A DNA stretch of 63,841 nucleotides, counting the filler, from an uncultured Methanosarcinales archaeon (GTDB lineage: Archaea > Nanobdellota > Nanobdellia > Woesearchaeales > CAYSVS01), in NCBI GenBank assembly GCA_964434475.1. It is 3 parts of 3 records of this genome, joined end to end, with 100 filler letters (N's around TTAATTAATTAA, not from the genome) between each part and the next. Parts side by side here need not be neighbours in the genome. Positions count along the whole stretch, not along the records: positions 1 to 30,792 come from CAYSVS010000011.1; 2 more parts are not named here. One strand, 5' to 3'. Made by a program: the position numbers and the translations under genes. The first letter of the stretch is position 1. Each line of letters opens with the position of its first letter. Shown here one piece after another: positions 11,595 through 29,448 of the stretch. The notes beneath the pieces were generated by a model. It saw only the letters and a program-made list of their open reading frames with translations. It had not been told where the DNA came from and did not search any database.

Positions 11595-12227
11595 ATGAAA
11601 ACTTTACTATCCTTGTTTGATTATTCGGGTAATTGGTCTTTGCCATACGCCGAAGCAGGATGGAATATTATTCTTTGGGATATAAAACATTCCTGTGATC
11701 TATTTAATACCTTTTCAAATATAGAAAATGCTTGCGCTGACTATTTTTATGAACATATTTTTGATAATTATGGTACTGTTGATGGTATTTTAGCCGCCCC
11801 ACCTTGTACCGATTTTGCATCTTCTGGAGCTCGTTGGTAGAAAGATAAAGATAAAAACGGTTCAACCGCCCAAAGTATTGAATTAGTTTATCAAGTACTA
11901 CGTATTGTTGATTTATGCATGCCCGATTTTTGGGTTTTAGAAAATCCTGTTGGCCGTTTACATAAATTAGTACCCGAATTAGGCAAGCCTGAATTTTTTC
12001 AACCTTATTGGTATGGTGATGCATATACTAAAAAAACAGGTTTATATGGTGATTTTAACTTTCCTGAAAAAACTTACATTGTTGAACCTAAAATTTATAT
12101 TGATAAAAATGGTAAACGTGGCTCCTATTATTGGTATAAACTTGGTGGAAAAAGTGAAAAAACCAAAGAACTAAGAAGTATTACTCCGCTTGGTTTTGCC
12201 GAAGCTTTTTATATGGCCAATCATTAA
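11595..12227 (+). pseudogene. Orphan C5-cytosine DNA methyltransferase with in-frame TAG
   Basis: LSLFDYSG (motif I), AAPPCTDF (IV), WVLENPVG (VI); the two ORFs share a frame and are separated only by TAG at 11838-11840. Confidence 0.8.
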
Positions 12228-22286: not shown

Positions 22287-23441
22287 TTATCTTTCCATGC
22301 CTTTTTTTGCTTTTTGTTTCGGCTCTTTAATTTTTTCCTTAGATTCTTTTGCTTTTTGTTTTGGCTCTTTTGTTTTTTGTTTTTCTTTAAGTTCATTTAT
22401 ATTATTTATGAATGAACCGGCTTTTTTAAAGCTTCCAATATCATACCATTTGTTTTTATAAATAAAATTAATTGCCCCATCTTTTTTAGCCATATTAATA
22501 CCATTATTTTTTAATGACTCTTCAAATTTTTCAAATGTTTTAGGCTTCCTGGTAAATGCTTCATCAATTAATTTTTCTACTTCAACCGACCTTTGTTTTT
22601 CCATATCCCACCCATTACCAACATATTCTTTTGTTGCTTTTTGATGATCATAAAATGATACAGTTAATTCATTTTCTTTGTCTTTTTTAGGAGCAATTTC
22701 TAATACAATATGCTCTTTGTCCGGATTGCTATTTAATAATTTTTCAATATTATTATTTCCATCCTTGTCTTTTTCGGGAATGGATATATTTATTAAATTA
22801 TTATCATCATTGTAAACTGAACGATAAACAAAGGCATTACCCCGAATATTTTCCTGAACAGATAAATTTAAATATCCTTGTTTTGTTAGTTGAGTTTTGC
22901 TTATTTTTTTCTTTTCTAAAAATAAACGCTTAATTTTAAATTTGTTACCATCTTTATCTTCTAACTCAACATCTTTTGCCGAACCAACAATAAAATACCG
23001 ATTTTGAGCTTCTTTTGACCAGGCTTTGGCACCTTTTATATAATCGGTTTCTTTAGTATCACTATTTACCATAGTTTTTATATGATAATCTGCTTTATCA
23101 GCAGTAACAGATTGTTCTTTTTTAGGAGAAGCATATATGATGGTATTTCCTTTTTCATCGGCGCCATATTCTAATAAATTCTTTTTTGGAATATTAATAA
23201 ATAAATCAGCATTGAAATTAGGCTTTTTTGTTTCATCATACGTATTTTGATAAACGGTATGAGTAAATTCTTCTTTATTTTCACTCAATTCTTTTCTTTT
23301 AGATACAGATATCTTAATTATATCACTATCTATTTTTTGAATTTCATCCGCATTTAAAGAAATTCTGTAACCGGGATTACTATTTTCAAATTCTTGATTT
23401 TCCCATGCTACGCCTAAATAATTTGCTTTTTCTGTTTTCAT
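22287..23441 (-). CDS. Hypothetical plasmid protein with internal repeats
   Basis: 384 aa; recurring Y(L/I/V)G.(A/G)W units; Lys-rich tail ending KGMER, typical of mobilization proteins. Confidence 0.65.
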   Translation of the reverse strand: MKTEKANYLGVAWENQEFENSNPGYRISLNADEIQKIDSDIIKISVSKRKELSENKEEFTHTVYQNTYDETKKPNFNADLFINIPKKNLLEYGADEKGNTIIYASPKKEQSVTADKADYHIKTMVNSDTKETDYIKGAKAWSKEAQNRYFIVGSAKDVELEDKDGNKFKIKRLFLEKKKISKTQLTKQGYLNLSVQENIRGNAFVYRSVYNDDNNLINISIPEKDKDGNNNIEKLLNSNPDKEHIVLEIAPKKDKENELTVSFYDHQKATKEYVGNGWDMEKQRSVEVEKLIDEAFTRKPKTFEKFEESLKNNGINMAKKDGAINFIYKNKWYDIGSFKKAGSFINNINELKEKQKTKEPKQKAKESKEKIKEPKQKAKKGMER

Positions 23442-23571
23442 AACGATAAATTTTAAAGGTTTGTTATTAATTAATTTATTATCAATGATAAAAATATATA
23501 ATATTCATTGATTAGACAAATGTTGATAATAAAAAATTATATTATTGTTTTTTCAGGAAAGTTAAATATTA

Positions 23572-23739
23572 ATATTATTTATCTATATTTTCAGGATTAT
23601 GTAAAATTAGAGTAATCATTAAAAGTAACAGCTTCATATTTTGTCTATCTATATTTTTAAGGTTATGCAAAACGATGTTCAATTCTAATTGTTCATCTTT
23701 TTCATTTTGTCTACCTGTATTTTCAAGGTTATGCAAAAC
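23572..23739 (-). CRISPR. CRISPR mini-array B (3 repeats, 2 spacers)
   Basis: 36-nt repeats at 23704-23739, 23638-23673 and 23572-23607 (degenerate); spacers exactly 30 nt. Confidence 0.8.
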
Positions 23740-23851
23740 CTATAACCTTTAATTTTTTTATTAAAAGGTAGTTGCCGAGTAAATAAGCTAATATTTCTCA
23801 GCTTAGGGTGCAAAACCACCCCTTTTATTATTAATTTTTTTCAAAGAACTT
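23740..23851 (-). ncRNA. tracrRNA/omegaRNA-like scaffold, copy B, with boxA-like motif
   Basis: 112-bp near-identical copy of 24471-24582; two hairpins and an anti-repeat. Confidence 0.65.
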
Positions 23852-24172
23852 TTATATAGTTTTTTTTAATTCTTCTGTTAAATAATTTAACATTTCATTT
23901 TTATCTTTAAAATTAACAGGAAACCAAATAAGTAAATTTTCATATTCATCTTCAATTTTTCCAATATCAATAAACCGAACTATTTCCACAAGCTCGTTTT
24001 TTTTATAAATATTTACAAATTTATTTACAATACACATTTTTGTTTCAAGCTCCATTAAATATGAATTTATATCTTCAATATCTAAATCTTGCCATAAATG
24101 TATAAATAAATAATTACTATATTTTTGATACTCCAAAAATAATTCTAACTCAATTTTATTCCAATAATACAT
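23852..24172 (-). CDS. Small acidic hypothetical protein between the two arrays
   Basis: 106 aa; stop codon abuts scaffold copy B. Confidence 0.6.
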   Translation of the reverse strand: MYYWNKIELELFLEYQKYSNYLFIHLWQDLDIEDINSYLMELETKMCIVNKFVNIYKKNELVEIVRFIDIGKIEDEYENLLIWFPVNFKDKNEMLNYLTEELKKTI

Positions 24173-24237
24173 TAATTACATTTTTTCAAATTTATACATA
24201 ACCTTTTATTTGTATGCTAATAATAAGTTCTTCCTGA

Positions 24238-24470
24238 ATTTTGTCTACCTTTTTTTAAGAACATACAAAATTTAATTCTAATAAAAAATATCAAGCAGGG
24301 AGATTTTGTCTACCTATATTTTTAAAGTTATATAAAACCAAATCTTTTTAAAAGTTTATAAATATTCAGTTTTGTCTACCTTTATTTTCAAGGTTATACA
24401 AAACTATGGATATGATCAAGAAAGGTGAAGGTAAGTTTTGTCTACCTTTATTTTCAAGGTTATACAAAAC
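24238..24470 (-). CRISPR. CRISPR mini-array A (4 repeats, 3 spacers)
   Basis: Identical 36-mers GTTTTGTCTACCTTTATTTTCAAGGTTATACAAAAC (+ strand) at 24369-24404 and 24435-24470; degenerate copies at 24303-24338 and 24238-24271; spacers 30, 30, 31 nt. Confidence 0.88.
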
Positions 24471-24582
24471 CTATAACCTTTTGTTTCTTTATTAAAAGGT
24501 AGTTGCCGAGTAAATAAACTAATATTTCTCAGCTTAGGGTGCAAAACCACCCCTTTTATTTTTTAATTTTTTCAAAGAACTT
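24471..24582 (-). ncRNA. tracrRNA/omegaRNA-like scaffold, copy A, with boxA-like motif
   Basis: Minus strand: GTTCTTTGAAA; GGGTG-GTTTTG-CACCC; GCTGAG..CTCGGC; CTACCTTT..AAGGTTATA complementary to the repeat. Confidence 0.65.
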
Positions 24583-25119
24583 TTATTTTATATCTAATTC
24601 TTCATCCAATTTTAACCTACTCATATTTATAGCATGATTTAAATCAGGGTCAGTATTTAATCCACATGAAGAACATTTAAATATTTCCGAATTTACTCTG
24701 TTTTCTTCTTTTTTTCTATCACGTTCACTTTTAAAATCTTCAAATTCTGAAATTTTATATTTCAATTTCCACATATCAAAGAAATGTGTTATTATTCCAA
24801 CAAAATATTCATATAAATTTCTTTCTATTTCTAAATCTATTTCCCAAATCTTTTTTTCTTCTTTAGGTCTATAATTATCATATTGTTTTCCCTGATAAAA
24901 GGAATAATGTTGTTGACTGTATATGCTTAATCGTTCATTAAATTCCCATACTTTTTTATAATCCATTTGTTCACTATATTCACAATCTATATGAAATCTT
25001 AAATAGTGTCTACCAAATTGGGTGATTGGTTTTGTAAAAACGTTAATTTTTGTTATAAATTCCTTATTTTCTTGAATCCACCCAAGATGTTTAAATGTAA
25101 AATCTGCTAAATTTCTCAT
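24583..25119 (-). CDS. Chimeric protein ending in a Cas12f/TnpB-like Zn-ribbon half and RuvC-III
   Basis: C-terminal ENRVNSEIFKCSSCGLNTDPDLNHAINM fits the TnpB/Cas12f pattern NR.....F.C..CG...dAD.NAA.NI; no RuvC-I/II seen. Confidence 0.65.
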   Translation of the reverse strand: MRNLADFTFKHLGWIQENKEFITKINVFTKPITQFGRHYLRFHIDCEYSEQMDYKKVWEFNERLSIYSQQHYSFYQGKQYDNYRPKEEKKIWEIDLEIERNLYEYFVGIITHFFDMWKLKYKISEFEDFKSERDRKKEENRVNSEIFKCSSCGLNTDPDLNHAINMSRLKLDEELDIK

Positions 25120-25129
25120 AATATATTTA

Positions 25130-25777
25130 TTATATTTTTTTAGTATGAGTTTTAAAAGTTACTTCATCAATGGAATATATATAATAATTTATATTTTCAT
25201 CATAATCGATAAATTCAAATACTCCATTCTGCATTTCACACAATGTATCTTTACCGTTACTAATAATATCTCCAACTAATTCTATTTTTACAGCTTCATA
25301 TTCAATTTTCGCCAAAGCAACAATAGCACAACCATATAAAAAAGGATTGGTATTTTCTAAATATTCATAAAATTTTGCTGAACCACTATTCTCTTTTATT
25401 TGTAATGCAATTAATAATTCCTGTTTATTTTCTAAATTAATAATACGCTTTAGCTCATTTTTAATTATTTCATTTTTTATTAAATTTGATGTTCTATAAA
25501 CTCTAAATAACTCAATAATGTAATCTGAATCTTCATCCCTTGCATCTGCTATTTCTTCCCATATATAAGATGGAACTTCAATTCCTGCAAAATACGGATC
25601 ATTTAATATTGCATCAACATAATTTTCAATACTACTATCATCACAAACAATAAAGTATTTTCCATTATAATTAACATAAAGTGATATCTCATCTTTAATC
25701 CAATGAGATTGATAATCACTAACCTTACAATTATATTTATTTTCAAATATTCTTTTAAATTCAGTTGATTTATTCAT
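25130..25777 (-). CDS. Acidic hypothetical protein
   Basis: 215 aa ORF in minus-strand operon. Confidence 0.6.
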   Translation of the reverse strand: MNKSTEFKRIFENKYNCKVSDYQSHWIKDEISLYVNYNGKYFIVCDDSSIENYVDAILNDPYFAGIEVPSYIWEEIADARDEDSDYIIELFRVYRTSNLIKNEIIKNELKRIINLENKQELLIALQIKENSGSAKFYEYLENTNPFLYGCAIVALAKIEYEAVKIELVGDIISNGKDTLCEMQNGVFEFIDYDENINYYIYSIDEVTFKTHTKKI

Positions 25778-25783
25778 AATTAG

Positions 25784-25999
25784 TTATTTTTTATTTTGTT
25801 CGTAATTTTTTAATACTTCACCCAAAGAATTATAAAACTTCTTAAGGTACCTATATATTTCAGGTTTCCATTTTTCGGATAATTCCTGTTTATTATTTTC
25901 TGAAAAACTTTTTCTTAAAGAATCCACAGGAATTTTCATTTCCTTTTCAAGTCCTTTTAGTCGAAAAATGGATTTATATTCTTTTATCCAGTTAAGCAT
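25784..25999 (-). CDS. Small HTH-like protein
   Basis: LKGLEKEMKIPVDSLRK. Confidence 0.5.
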   Translation of the reverse strand: MLNWIKEYKSIFRLKGLEKEMKIPVDSLRKSFSENNKQELSEKWKPEIYRYLKKFYNSLGEVLKNYEQNKK

Positions 26000-26498
26000 T
26001 TTTTCTTCTTATTATACTTAATAACATATTTCTTTCAGCAATTAAATTTGATGTTTGTCTTACTGCTTTTTTTACAATTTCAATTTTATTGTTTTCCATT
26101 AAATATAACAATCCCCAATTACCAGGTATCTCATTTTCTTTTATAAGACCATCAGGACAACAATAAAATCTTAACTCGCCAACTCCCTTTTCAGAATTAT
26201 TTCTGAAAGGTTTTTTACTATCTTGTAAAAAATCACTACGACTTACTTTAACTTCAATCATAACACTATATGCACTATTCCAACCTATCACATCAGGAGT
26301 TTCATTTTCTACCGTAACCATATCAACAGCAATAATAGAACAGTTTGGAACTTTGATGTTTCTTTCGTGCCTTTTAAGCCATTTTAAAGCTTTTAAACAC
26401 AAATTATCATGCTCCTTTCTATCGACCTTCCTTTTTTGCTTTTTTGGTTCTTTTTGAAGTTCTTTTGCCTTATCAACTCTTATTCCCTTTACTCCCAT
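25992..26498 (-). CDS. PD-(D/E)XK nuclease-fold protein (MmcB-like)
   Basis: E.PDVIGW...IEVKVSRSDFLQD.KK...RFYCCP.GLI...E.P..WGLL. Confidence 0.7.
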   Translation of the reverse strand: MGVKGIRVDKAKELQKEPKKQKRKVDRKEHDNLCLKALKWLKRHERNIKVPNCSIIAVDMVTVENETPDVIGWNSAYSVMIEVKVSRSDFLQDSKKPFRNNSEKGVGELRFYCCPDGLIKENEIPGNWGLLYLMENNKIEIVKKAVRQTSNLIAERNMLLSIIRRKNA

Positions 26499-28662: not shown

Positions 28663-29448
28663 TCAAAACATCAATCTAAATCCTTTATCCTTCTTTCTGA
28701 ATTTTCTTATTTCAGCTTTATAAAACTTCATTTGCTGTTTGCAAATAAAATTCCTGAAAATAGAAATATCTTCCTTTTTTTCTGTATCGTTTAACGCCTT
28801 AATATATTCTGCTCGATCTTCCGTAAAAACCTTTATCAAAGGTTCTTTATGATACATTTGCACATAATTCATCATTAACCTTGAAGTCCTTCCGTTTCCA
28901 TCGCCAAATGGATGTATATTAACCAGGTTGTAATGGATGTCAGCAGAAAGCTTTAAAATATCATTTCCCTTTACATTATCTATCCTTTTATTAACACTAT
29001 CAACGAGATCATTTAATAAATTTCCTACTTTACTAAAATCAGGAAAATATTTTTGATCAACATAAACTTGTGCCTTTCTTATATCCCCTTTTGATGTGTC
29101 AAAACTACCCGAAATAGTATTTACAACACCACCTGTATTTTTCATTACTTTTTCGGCAACATCCTGAATTAAATCTATACTAATTTTTCTTTTTTCTTTT
29201 GCTACTTCTTTCAGGAATAATAAAGCTTCATAGTGGTCCTTAATCATTAAATGATCTGTTAATGGTTTCCCTTTAGCTGTAATATTTTTATCCAACAATA
29301 ACCTTGTGTCATTTTCAGTAAGTGAGCATCCTTCAATTTTGGTTGAATTATATATAATAGACATCATTGAGAATTTCTCATAATCAATAGCACTCGATAA
29401 ACCATATCTCATGTATCTATTTCTTAATATTTCTAAATCATTCCACAT
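28663..29448 (-). CDS. Fic-domain protein
   Basis: HPFGDGNGRTSR; N-terminal inhibitory-type STKIEG. Confidence 0.92.
   Translation of the reverse strand: MWNDLEILRNRYMRYGLSSAIDYEKFSMMSIIYNSTKIEGCSLTENDTRLLLDKNITAKGKPLTDHLMIKDHYEALLFLKEVAKEKRKISIDLIQDVAEKVMKNTGGVVNTISGSFDTSKGDIRKAQVYVDQKYFPDFSKVGNLLNDLVDSVNKRIDNVKGNDILKLSADIHYNLVNIHPFGDGNGRTSRLMMNYVQMYHKEPLIKVFTEDRAEYIKALNDTEKKEDISIFRNFICKQQMKFYKAEIRKFRKKDKGFRLMF

Follow-up and report, generated by a model that had tools for sequence, protein, structure and literature searches.

How does a small open reading frame (ORF) that looks like ordinary cargo over most of its length come to end like a miniature CRISPR effector, directly upstream of RNA scaffolds and short repeat arrays of the kind that would guide such an effector? 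The question is raised by ORF178 (24583..25119, minus strand, 178 residues, with a sequence ending in ...KEENRVNSEIFKCSSCGLNTDPDLNHAINMSRLKLDEELDIK), which lies in a stretch of 63,841 nucleotides (nt; filler included) from an uncultured Methanosarcinales archaeon (GCA_964434475.1), a metagenome-assembled genome (MAG) of 1.5 Mb in 148 contigs that is 97%-complete; this whole stretch is referred to here as the window. In our opinion a Cas12f-type locus carried by a mobile element has probably decayed or recombined here, where ORF178 would be a chimera and the guide-RNA cassettes behind it would be orphaned.

The end of ORF178 was compared with proteins and with profiles. A phmmer search of 1,835,955,588 representative proteins at E<=0.001 gave two matches, which are ORF178 itself and a 438-residue protein, hereafter P0002 (E 5.1e-11, residues 135-178 on 395-438), and by BLASTP 38/42 residues of the two proteins are identical (residues 137-178 on 397-438), up to the last residue. 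All four profile libraries match the tail alone, namely Pfam with PF07282 Cas12f1-like_TNB (E 0.0023, 18.5 bits, residues 143-166 on positions 38-60 of 60; under the cut-off of 26.3), NCBIfam with Cas12f2 (E 0.0021, residues 133-171 on 485-520 of 524; 16.9 against a cut-off of 450), PADLOC with Cas12f PDLC01699 (E 6.7e-5, residues 137-169 on 359-391 of 399) and PHROGs with the transposase phrog_12300 (E 2.8e-4). When the whole of ORF178 was aligned by hhalign to a profile built from eight Cas12f-family members (A3), only residues 131-170 were placed, on 380-419, with a probability of 96.6 and E 6.3e-10. ORF178 stays below the curated Cas12f/TnpB cut-offs (PF07282 and Cas12f2), and its tail is confirmed by this homology, far beyond chance, as a genuine Cas12f/TnpB-family C-terminal fragment. 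A first-pass annotation of the window had called it such a relic, spanning 24583-24705 with a junction near 24705, which was right within two codons. The parts of ORF178 are as follows.

24586..24711, minus strand: Cas12f-family 3' stump (codons 137-178), with the second TNB zinc-ribbon CxxC, the RuvC-III motif and the native C-terminal tail

24583..24585, minus strand: stop codon of ORF178, coinciding with the native stop in the P0002-type protein; the alignment reaches the last residue of both

24712..25119, minus strand: codons 1-136, coding sequence, relatives undetected, unrelated to Cas12f/TnpB

The cysteines of ORF178 are C46, C149 and C152 only, and its sole CxxC (C149-S-S-C152) is followed by D157-P-D159-L-N-H-A-I-N165, of which D159-L-N-H-A-I-N165 aligns with the NADxNAAxNI of relatives and contains the RuvC-III aspartate; the second CxxC and the RuvC-III-like motif, both already noticed in the first pass, are thus in place. 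A four-cysteine TNB zinc ribbon is absent from ORF178, which has the C149/C152 pair only. P0002 carries its first CxxC (CSKC) just before the matching stretch, and since ORF178 reads DFKSERDRK at that site, the breakpoint falls between both halves of the zinc ribbon, at ~24711.

On the other side of this breakpoint, residues 1-136 had zero phmmer matches in the same 1.84 billion representatives, and in a word-index search of 5.8 billion clustered proteins ORF178 alone matched among 81 candidates (97-312 residues). The lack of RuvC-I/II and of a first CxxC over the first ~135 residues, stated from the beginning, was upheld: the RuvC-I aspartate (G-x-D-L-G strand) is absent from residues 1-136 (hhalign best probability 0.46; MAFFT places no residue), the RuvC-II glutamate region is absent from ORF178 by MAFFT and hhalign, the first CxxC is not present in residues 1-136, and six-frame searches gave no remnant of the effector elsewhere on C11, the contig concerned. 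The single-sequence AlphaFold model of ORF178 has a mean predicted local distance difference test (pLDDT) of 63.9, with an alpha/beta domain (residues 10-60 and 90-125 at 70-90) and a tail at 46-53. With this model, Foldseek found nothing in the PDB at E<=0.001; for the N-terminal part, the best Z in VIA wide was 6.6, under the tool's stated background of 7-8, and the best Atlas score for ORF178 (0.77) was deemed not usable. Several candidates were rejected on the way, such as a hidden RuvC (MAFFT paired QHYSFYQGKQYDNYRPKEE with WSYYELQxMIEYKAKK, at the hhalign probability given above), an RNase-H-like fold (about 1/3 of 50 Foldseek rows by their entry titles, E 0.1-0.7, root-mean-square deviation 15-20 A) and GHKL-type ATPase domains, which came top in VIA wide at the same sub-background Z. 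A single 20-residue match of ORF178 in viral_contigs was seeded on the search pattern and was disregarded, and a search there for the neighbour ORF215 returned none. The open frame of ORF178 covers 191 codons in total, while the longest stop-free run in contig shuffles (n=100) had a mean of 96.9 and a maximum of 131; because the frame is longer than in any shuffle and its start lies 10 nt past the ORF215 stop, codons 1-136 are probably coding, though without a detectable relative.

Two cassettes lie 3' of ORF178 on the same strand and are 94% identical over 151 nt (24436-24586 / 23705-23855), so the RNA module has indeed been kept and duplicated, as was first supposed. Each unit consists of an A-rich linker, stem 1 (GGGGUG...CACCC), stem 2 (GCUGAG...CUCGGC), stem 3, ACAAAAC and a 30-nt spacer, where stem 3 is made by two anti-repeat segments that pair with the first 36-nt repeat.

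24554..24582, minus strand: A-rich linker (GTTCTTTGAAAAAA...), common to both cassettes, inside the 151-nt duplication

24494..24553, minus strand: cassette A scaffold, stems 1 and 2, from the RNA fold and covariance-model matches

24435..24493, minus strand: cassette A stem 3, with anti-repeats CUACCUUU and AAGGUUAUA and the first repeat (24435-24470), ACAAAAC standing before the guide

24238..24434, minus strand: mini-array A, with spacers 24405-24434, 24339-24368 and 24272-24302 and repeats 24369-24404, 24303-24338 and 24238-24271

23704..23851, minus strand: cassette B, with linker, stems 1-2 (23763-23822), anti-repeat and first repeat (23704-23739)

23572..23703, minus strand: mini-array B, with spacers 23674-23703 and 23608-23637, repeat 23638-23673 and degenerate repeat 23572-23607

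Past the first repeat there are three further ones in cassette A and two in cassette B, the last being degenerate in each. Repeats A1 and A2 are identical and the 36-nt repeats of array A are spaced 66 nt; the repeat at 24303-24338 has 2 changes and the one at 24238-24271 is reduced to 34 nt. Both are CRISPR arrays in that they have at least three near-identical repeats (three in array B), regular spacing and unique spacers. Folding of cassette A on the minus strand gave -37.8 kcal/mol (z -5.0; plus strand -26.6) and of cassette B -33.9 kcal/mol (z -4.3), with all three stems intact in both scaffolds and two stem-weakening changes in cassette B.

The same arrangement was found in other metagenomes. 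In a scan with P0002, 85 relatives were confirmed of 508 candidate stretches and 80 of them were used; five of these loci have a scaffold 3' of the gene, joined to a repeat array in 4/5, so the gene-scaffold-array order of compact type V loci, to which the first-pass annotation had likened the window, is the same in relatives. In L032, a 469-residue GVDLG protein is followed by a homologous scaffold, six full repeats and a truncated one, while in L037 the gene is followed by a scaffold. The scaffold closest to that of the window stands in L035 (2484-2670) and L036 (1897-2294) after a 365-residue protein ending in ...GISVIVL; their repeat is alike with the window repeat at ~29/36 positions (hand count), a GTTCTTTAAAA string similar to the linker precedes both scaffolds, and L036 has two tandem cassettes, as in the window. 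This 365-residue protein matches PDB 9n9c_A ('nuclease-deactivated Cas12f', which we take to be the published dCas12f) end-to-end with E 1.7e-83. No sigma factor stood out on the short contigs of L035 and L036, and the upstream genes of L035, phage- or element-like by translation (HNH-like and VRR-NUC-like ORFs), have no similarity to the window, so synteny is not supported. L041 (2750-4450) encodes a relative of 409 residues in which RuvC-I reads GVAFG and RuvC-III is degenerate; a scaffold and an array of five 36-nt repeats plus a truncated one come after it, and the locus resembles the 'dead Cas12f with CRISPR array' cluster described in the available part of PMC13472631.

A covariance model made from the two window copies alone recovered L032, L035 and both L036 copies (E 6.6e-7 to 3.4e-4), and after one iteration the same four at E 1.9e-15 to 2.8e-13, all of them downstream of an effector gene and on the strand of the gene. 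In the resulting alignment, which has six sequences only, some of them close kin, and was fitted to the model, pairing reaches 92.5% of cells compared with 78.7% in shuffles (0/500 equal), six pairs have a compensatory change on both sides (2/500 shuffles), and slid controls pair at 29-51%. At two helix positions (columns 1-18 and 25-49) G-U pairs alternate with Watson-Crick pairs, and these are consistent with the gene-sense strand only. The scaffolds of L033, L034, L037 and L041 were not reached by the iterated model at E<=0.01; with a hand-written pattern, L033 (two copies), L034, L037 and L041 show the same two-stem plan with wholly different stem-1 sequences. The two scaffold-like elements in L033 (5747-5802 and 7371-7427) flank a 459-residue gene, one being upstream of it and the other just past its stop. 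Rfam gave no score near the gathering threshold over 23300-25200, a two-repeat pattern found chance matches only in genome_contigs (2 loci) and viral_contigs (2 loci), and the scaffold was not found in 60 relatives. Homology and covariation suggest that scaffold, repeat and downstream spacer form a predicted natural single guide with gene-sense transcription. A Cas9-like plus-strand reading, with stem 1 and a T-run, was overruled by the fold energy, the strand of the relatives and the G-U pairs. On the plus strand, stem 1 and the T-run at 23806-23821 and 24537-24552 score as intrinsic terminators (2 vs 0.3 expected), which might stop convergent transcription too.

In the cassette alignment, a second junction appears in front of cassette B.

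23852..24172, minus strand: ORF106, assigned to no family; the final ~8 codons (~23852-23878, starting with GAAGAATTA) share homology with the Cas12f tail that precedes cassette A

Homology between the cassettes begins at GAAGAATTA, ~24 nt before the stops of ORF178 and ORF106, and upstream of it the similarity of the two ORFs is at chance (score 18 vs a shuffle mean of 19.2); ORF106 has no Pfam, NCBIfam, PADLOC or PHROGs match. Judged by this alignment, ORF106 likewise terminates in Cas12f tail codons. As the homology starts inside the tail codons of both ORFs, the copied unit took in the very end of the gene, and as ORF106 keeps only ~8 of these codons, two or more breakpoints are more likely than a single in-frame deletion. 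The first-pass annotation had the effector lost by in-frame recombination, which is broadly right. An in-frame join has a prior of 1 in 3 and is not evidence of selection.

To put this together, illegitimate recombination would have given rise to the ORF178 chimera, in which a miniature Cas12f-family gene would survive as its final 42 codons plus stop, in frame with 136 unrelated cargo codons; the break separates the two CxxC pairs of the zinc ribbon. The stump would be translated as passive read-through and not as a working domain, because it cannot form the ribbon and is without RuvC-I, RuvC-II, WED and REC. The RNA side would be retained in the two tandem scaffold and mini-array cassettes; since there is no effector in the recovered genome, these most likely represent remnants at an early stage of decay, with degeneration already visible in cassette B and the distal repeats. 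The effector may have been deleted in place, or a fragment made of its 3' end and the RNA module may have been copied in.

The intact parent was sought across the whole MAG in six frames, with P0002 and profile A3 as queries, and the stump alone was hit, so the lost gene is not hidden in another frame; no effector was found in the MAG, and with neither effector nor adaptation genes nearby the locus is not a complete CRISPR-Cas one. Among 100 relatives of the order, 4 gave generic TnpB-like matches only, and Cas12f was not found there. The best PF07282 match in the MAG (C26:6266-6370, 23.7 bits, under the cut-off) is a 49-codon frame that covers the mid-ribbon only and is not matched by profile A3; it probably encodes a small zinc-ribbon protein that is unrelated. 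Cas1-Cas2 occurs just once in the MAG, on C112 (L016:1-2201), a GC-rich 2.2-kb contig with a 30-nt repeat, GCCTTAATCGAACCAATGTGGGATTGAAAC, unrelated to the window's repeat; this contig is probably from another organism in the bin. No convincing spacer target was found in the MAG, where partial matches of 14-16 nt are at chance for the composition, nor in 300 further genomes of the order, nor, for the spacers of array A, in 72,556 plasmids or 50,697 phages. There was no RNA run among the sequencing runs that carry the stretch. After the last degenerate repeat of array B (offset 6-25), 23547-23566 is identical over 20 nt to 12054-12073 inside ORF 11919..12227 of the same element (E 2.3e-5; rough chance ~0.003); as a self-targeting guide it is doubtful, given the 5 nt between repeat and match and the badly degraded state of that repeat.

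Other explanations of the locus deserve consideration, one being that the junction is an assembly chimera of a Cas12f locus with an unrelated contig. This is a metagenome, the de Bruijn graph is interrupted close by because the cassettes are repeated, and the Logan pieces between 24375 and 24678 are short; however, these pieces break in the duplicated cassette and not at 24711, and the one run whose Logan contigs contain the stretch (a microbial-mat metagenome) has a 6075-nt contig that agrees with the window at every position of 24652-25900 and further on (0 differences), reaches 60 nt into the stump side and has a depth of 8.57 on both sides of the junction. Because this contig spans the junction without a difference at equal depth, the join was not created by the assembler used for this MAG, the misassembly there that was allowed for at first did not appear, and we find a chimeric assembly hardly credible. 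It also seems highly improbable that ORF178 is a functional small guide-associated protein whose retained Cas12f tail would hold the scaffold RNA, which was the other proposal made for it. The in-frame fusion with its native stop, the operon-like row with the gene directly upstream of the scaffold, and ORF106 also running in frame into tail codons would suit such a protein, but neither a second chimera nor an N-terminal homologue was present in the representative or the clustered proteins searched above, half a zinc ribbon cannot chelate zinc, the tail has the low-lying pLDDT already given, and for two in-frame joins the prior is ~1 in 9, so the proposal is left unsupported.

The stump may also be a relic while the cassettes still work, as effector-less guides that program a Cas12f or dCas12f of the host or of another element in trans and so serve inter-element competition or gene regulation. 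Guide cassettes of the Cas12f/dCas12f clade would then survive and spread on conjugative elements without an effector, the mobile element would supply the programme only, a case of guides carried alone, with a resident or co-resident effector doing the rest, and the in-frame stumps before both cassettes would mark the copied unit. The intact stems of both copies, the identical repeats A1 and A2 and the regular 66-nt spacing fit this, and so do the tandem gRNAs and vestigial arrays that function in related dCas12f systems (PMC13472631, as far as its available part goes) and the mini-arrays on mobile elements described in the accessible sections of PMC11656645 and PMC9071438. We regard it as unlikely all the same, given that the family effector was not found in the MAG, that none of the target collections listed above gave a convincing target, and that the distal repeats and cassette B are degrading. 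RNA decoys (RNA anti-CRISPRs) that would soak up the Cas12f of a recipient during conjugation are a very unlikely alternative use of the same cassettes: repeat-mimicking RNAs of mobile elements are described in the part of PMC10651486 at hand, and the locus lies next to the anti-restriction gene ArdC, on an element that can be transmitted, but the described decoys are solitary repeats whereas full scaffolds and regular spacers are present here, and the searched genomes of the order hold nothing of Cas12f beyond the generic TnpB-like matches.

Decay or recombination of a Cas12f-type locus remains our preferred explanation, and some observations weigh against it. The reading frame of the stump is intact as far as the native stop, and a protein of a separate record matches it at 90% identity, which could reflect constraint rather than youth. 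All three stems in both scaffolds, and the identity of A1 and A2, are as compatible with maintained function as with a recent event. The MAG is in many contigs and C11 is non-circular and without transfer genes, so an effector may still be encoded by another replicon or by some stretch of the element that was not assembled. Finally, the run behind the Logan contig is probably the source sample of the MAG, which makes this contig a second assembly and not independent data.

As for the parent, P0002 is a complete family member (PF07282 66.5 bits; guided_TnpB 148.7 bits, cut-off 100; PADLOC Cas12f 1.8e-89), with PDB matches to 9nzo_B 'Cas12f effector' (1.8e-58) and 9n9c_A 'nuclease-deactivated Cas12f' (2.9e-53); it is a singleton encoded on one JGI contig (38,062 nt). 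Its nearest relative, P0003, is 57% identical, and among the best 119 of 1175 relatives at E<=1e-30 most have ~360-370 residues and lack PF07282 (dCas12f-like), the named sources being Chitinophaga, Sphingobacterium and Arsenicibacter. The full-length, Cas12f-like P0002-P0005 (39-57% identity of the relatives to P0002) keep the zinc ribbon and RuvC-III and have Asn in place of the RuvC-I Asp (GMNLG in P0002; GMNLG, GMNIG and SMNLG in P0003-P0005; GVDLG in active relatives), and they directly precede the ~360-370-residue dCas12f-like proteins in the similarity ranking, which makes them a possible intermediate state toward truncated dCas12f. P0002 belongs to a Bacteroidota clade bordering the published nuclease-dead dCas12f, and because P0002-P0005 carry this Asn, the parent of the stump may already have bound DNA instead of cutting it.

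In comparison with known systems, the stump aligns with the end of the TNB ribbon and the RuvC-III helix of type V-F Cas12f (9nzo/9nzr, 7l48 Cas12f1, 7c7l Cas14a.1), and the order of gene, RNA and array is common to both; ORF178 retains 42 of ~440 residues, without WED, REC, RuvC-I, RuvC-II and the first CxxC, and the window scaffold is fused to the first repeat instead of being a separate tracrRNA. TnpB with its omega-RNA (IS200/IS605) is of the same superfamily as P0002, and its RNA also has a 5' scaffold and a 3' guide by the 3' end of the gene, but the window has a repeat-spacer array and not a transposon end, and no TnpA or insertion sequence ends were seen. In the available part of PMC13472631 (Nature 2026), dCas12f proteins with C-terminal truncations are described whose single gRNAs, 85-105 nt long, are encoded directly 3' of the gene; tandem gRNAs, vestigial arrays and a separate dead-Cas12f cluster adjoining CRISPR arrays are described as well. 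The closest scaffold and repeat relatives of our cassettes follow a protein like 9n9c (365 residues), and by homology the cassettes belong to this published dCas12f gRNA class, seemingly nearer its CRISPR-like end because of the extra anti-repeat segment and the regular arrays. The differences are that dCas12f proteins lose the C-terminus while the window keeps the C-terminus only, that a sigma-E or helix-turn-helix partner was not seen among the ORFs scanned on the contig, and that this extra anti-repeat segment is a feature of the window scaffold. Orphan or mini-arrays (PMC11656645, PMC9071438, PMC10651486 and bioRxiv 10.1101/2023.03.03.530964, in their accessible parts) are likewise short, cas-less and on transmissible elements, but in the window the lost effector has left a gene stump and every array comes with a full scaffold.

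As it stands, the finding is an ordinary remnant, and its RNA class is already in print according to the consulted portion of PMC13472631. The locus is a clean, datable example of miniature type V decay on a mobile element, with the effector lost save a 42-codon stump while the RNA cassettes persist and duplicate. The Asn clade of P0002-P0005, next to truncated dCas12f, may matter more than the stump.

The setting is a contig of 30,792 nt (C11, window positions 1-30792), and the remainder of the window is from another contig: G+C is ~25% on C11 and rises to ~32% past 30792 (30793-63841). The window joins at least two MAG contigs and adjacency across 30792 carries no meaning. C11 is not circular by end overlap, and its hallmark genes (DUF3945, ArdC, ParA, DUF3408, MobC, a MobA/VirD2 relaxase, a TraG/TrwB coupling protein, a Toprim protein, a serine resolvase and a Fic protein) are those of a conjugative or mobilisable element of Bacteroidota type. 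ORF178 sits in the cargo part, in a minus-strand row of ORF168, ORF71, ORF215 and ORF178. Within this part, the Fic protein (28663-29448, minus strand) matches the PADLOC PDC-S04 and SoFic models (2.1e-27), and ORF168 (25992-26498, minus strand) matches phrog_631 (3.1e-43) with a weak Hjc-like nuclease similarity, which suggests a cargo region of defence or anti-defence flavour.

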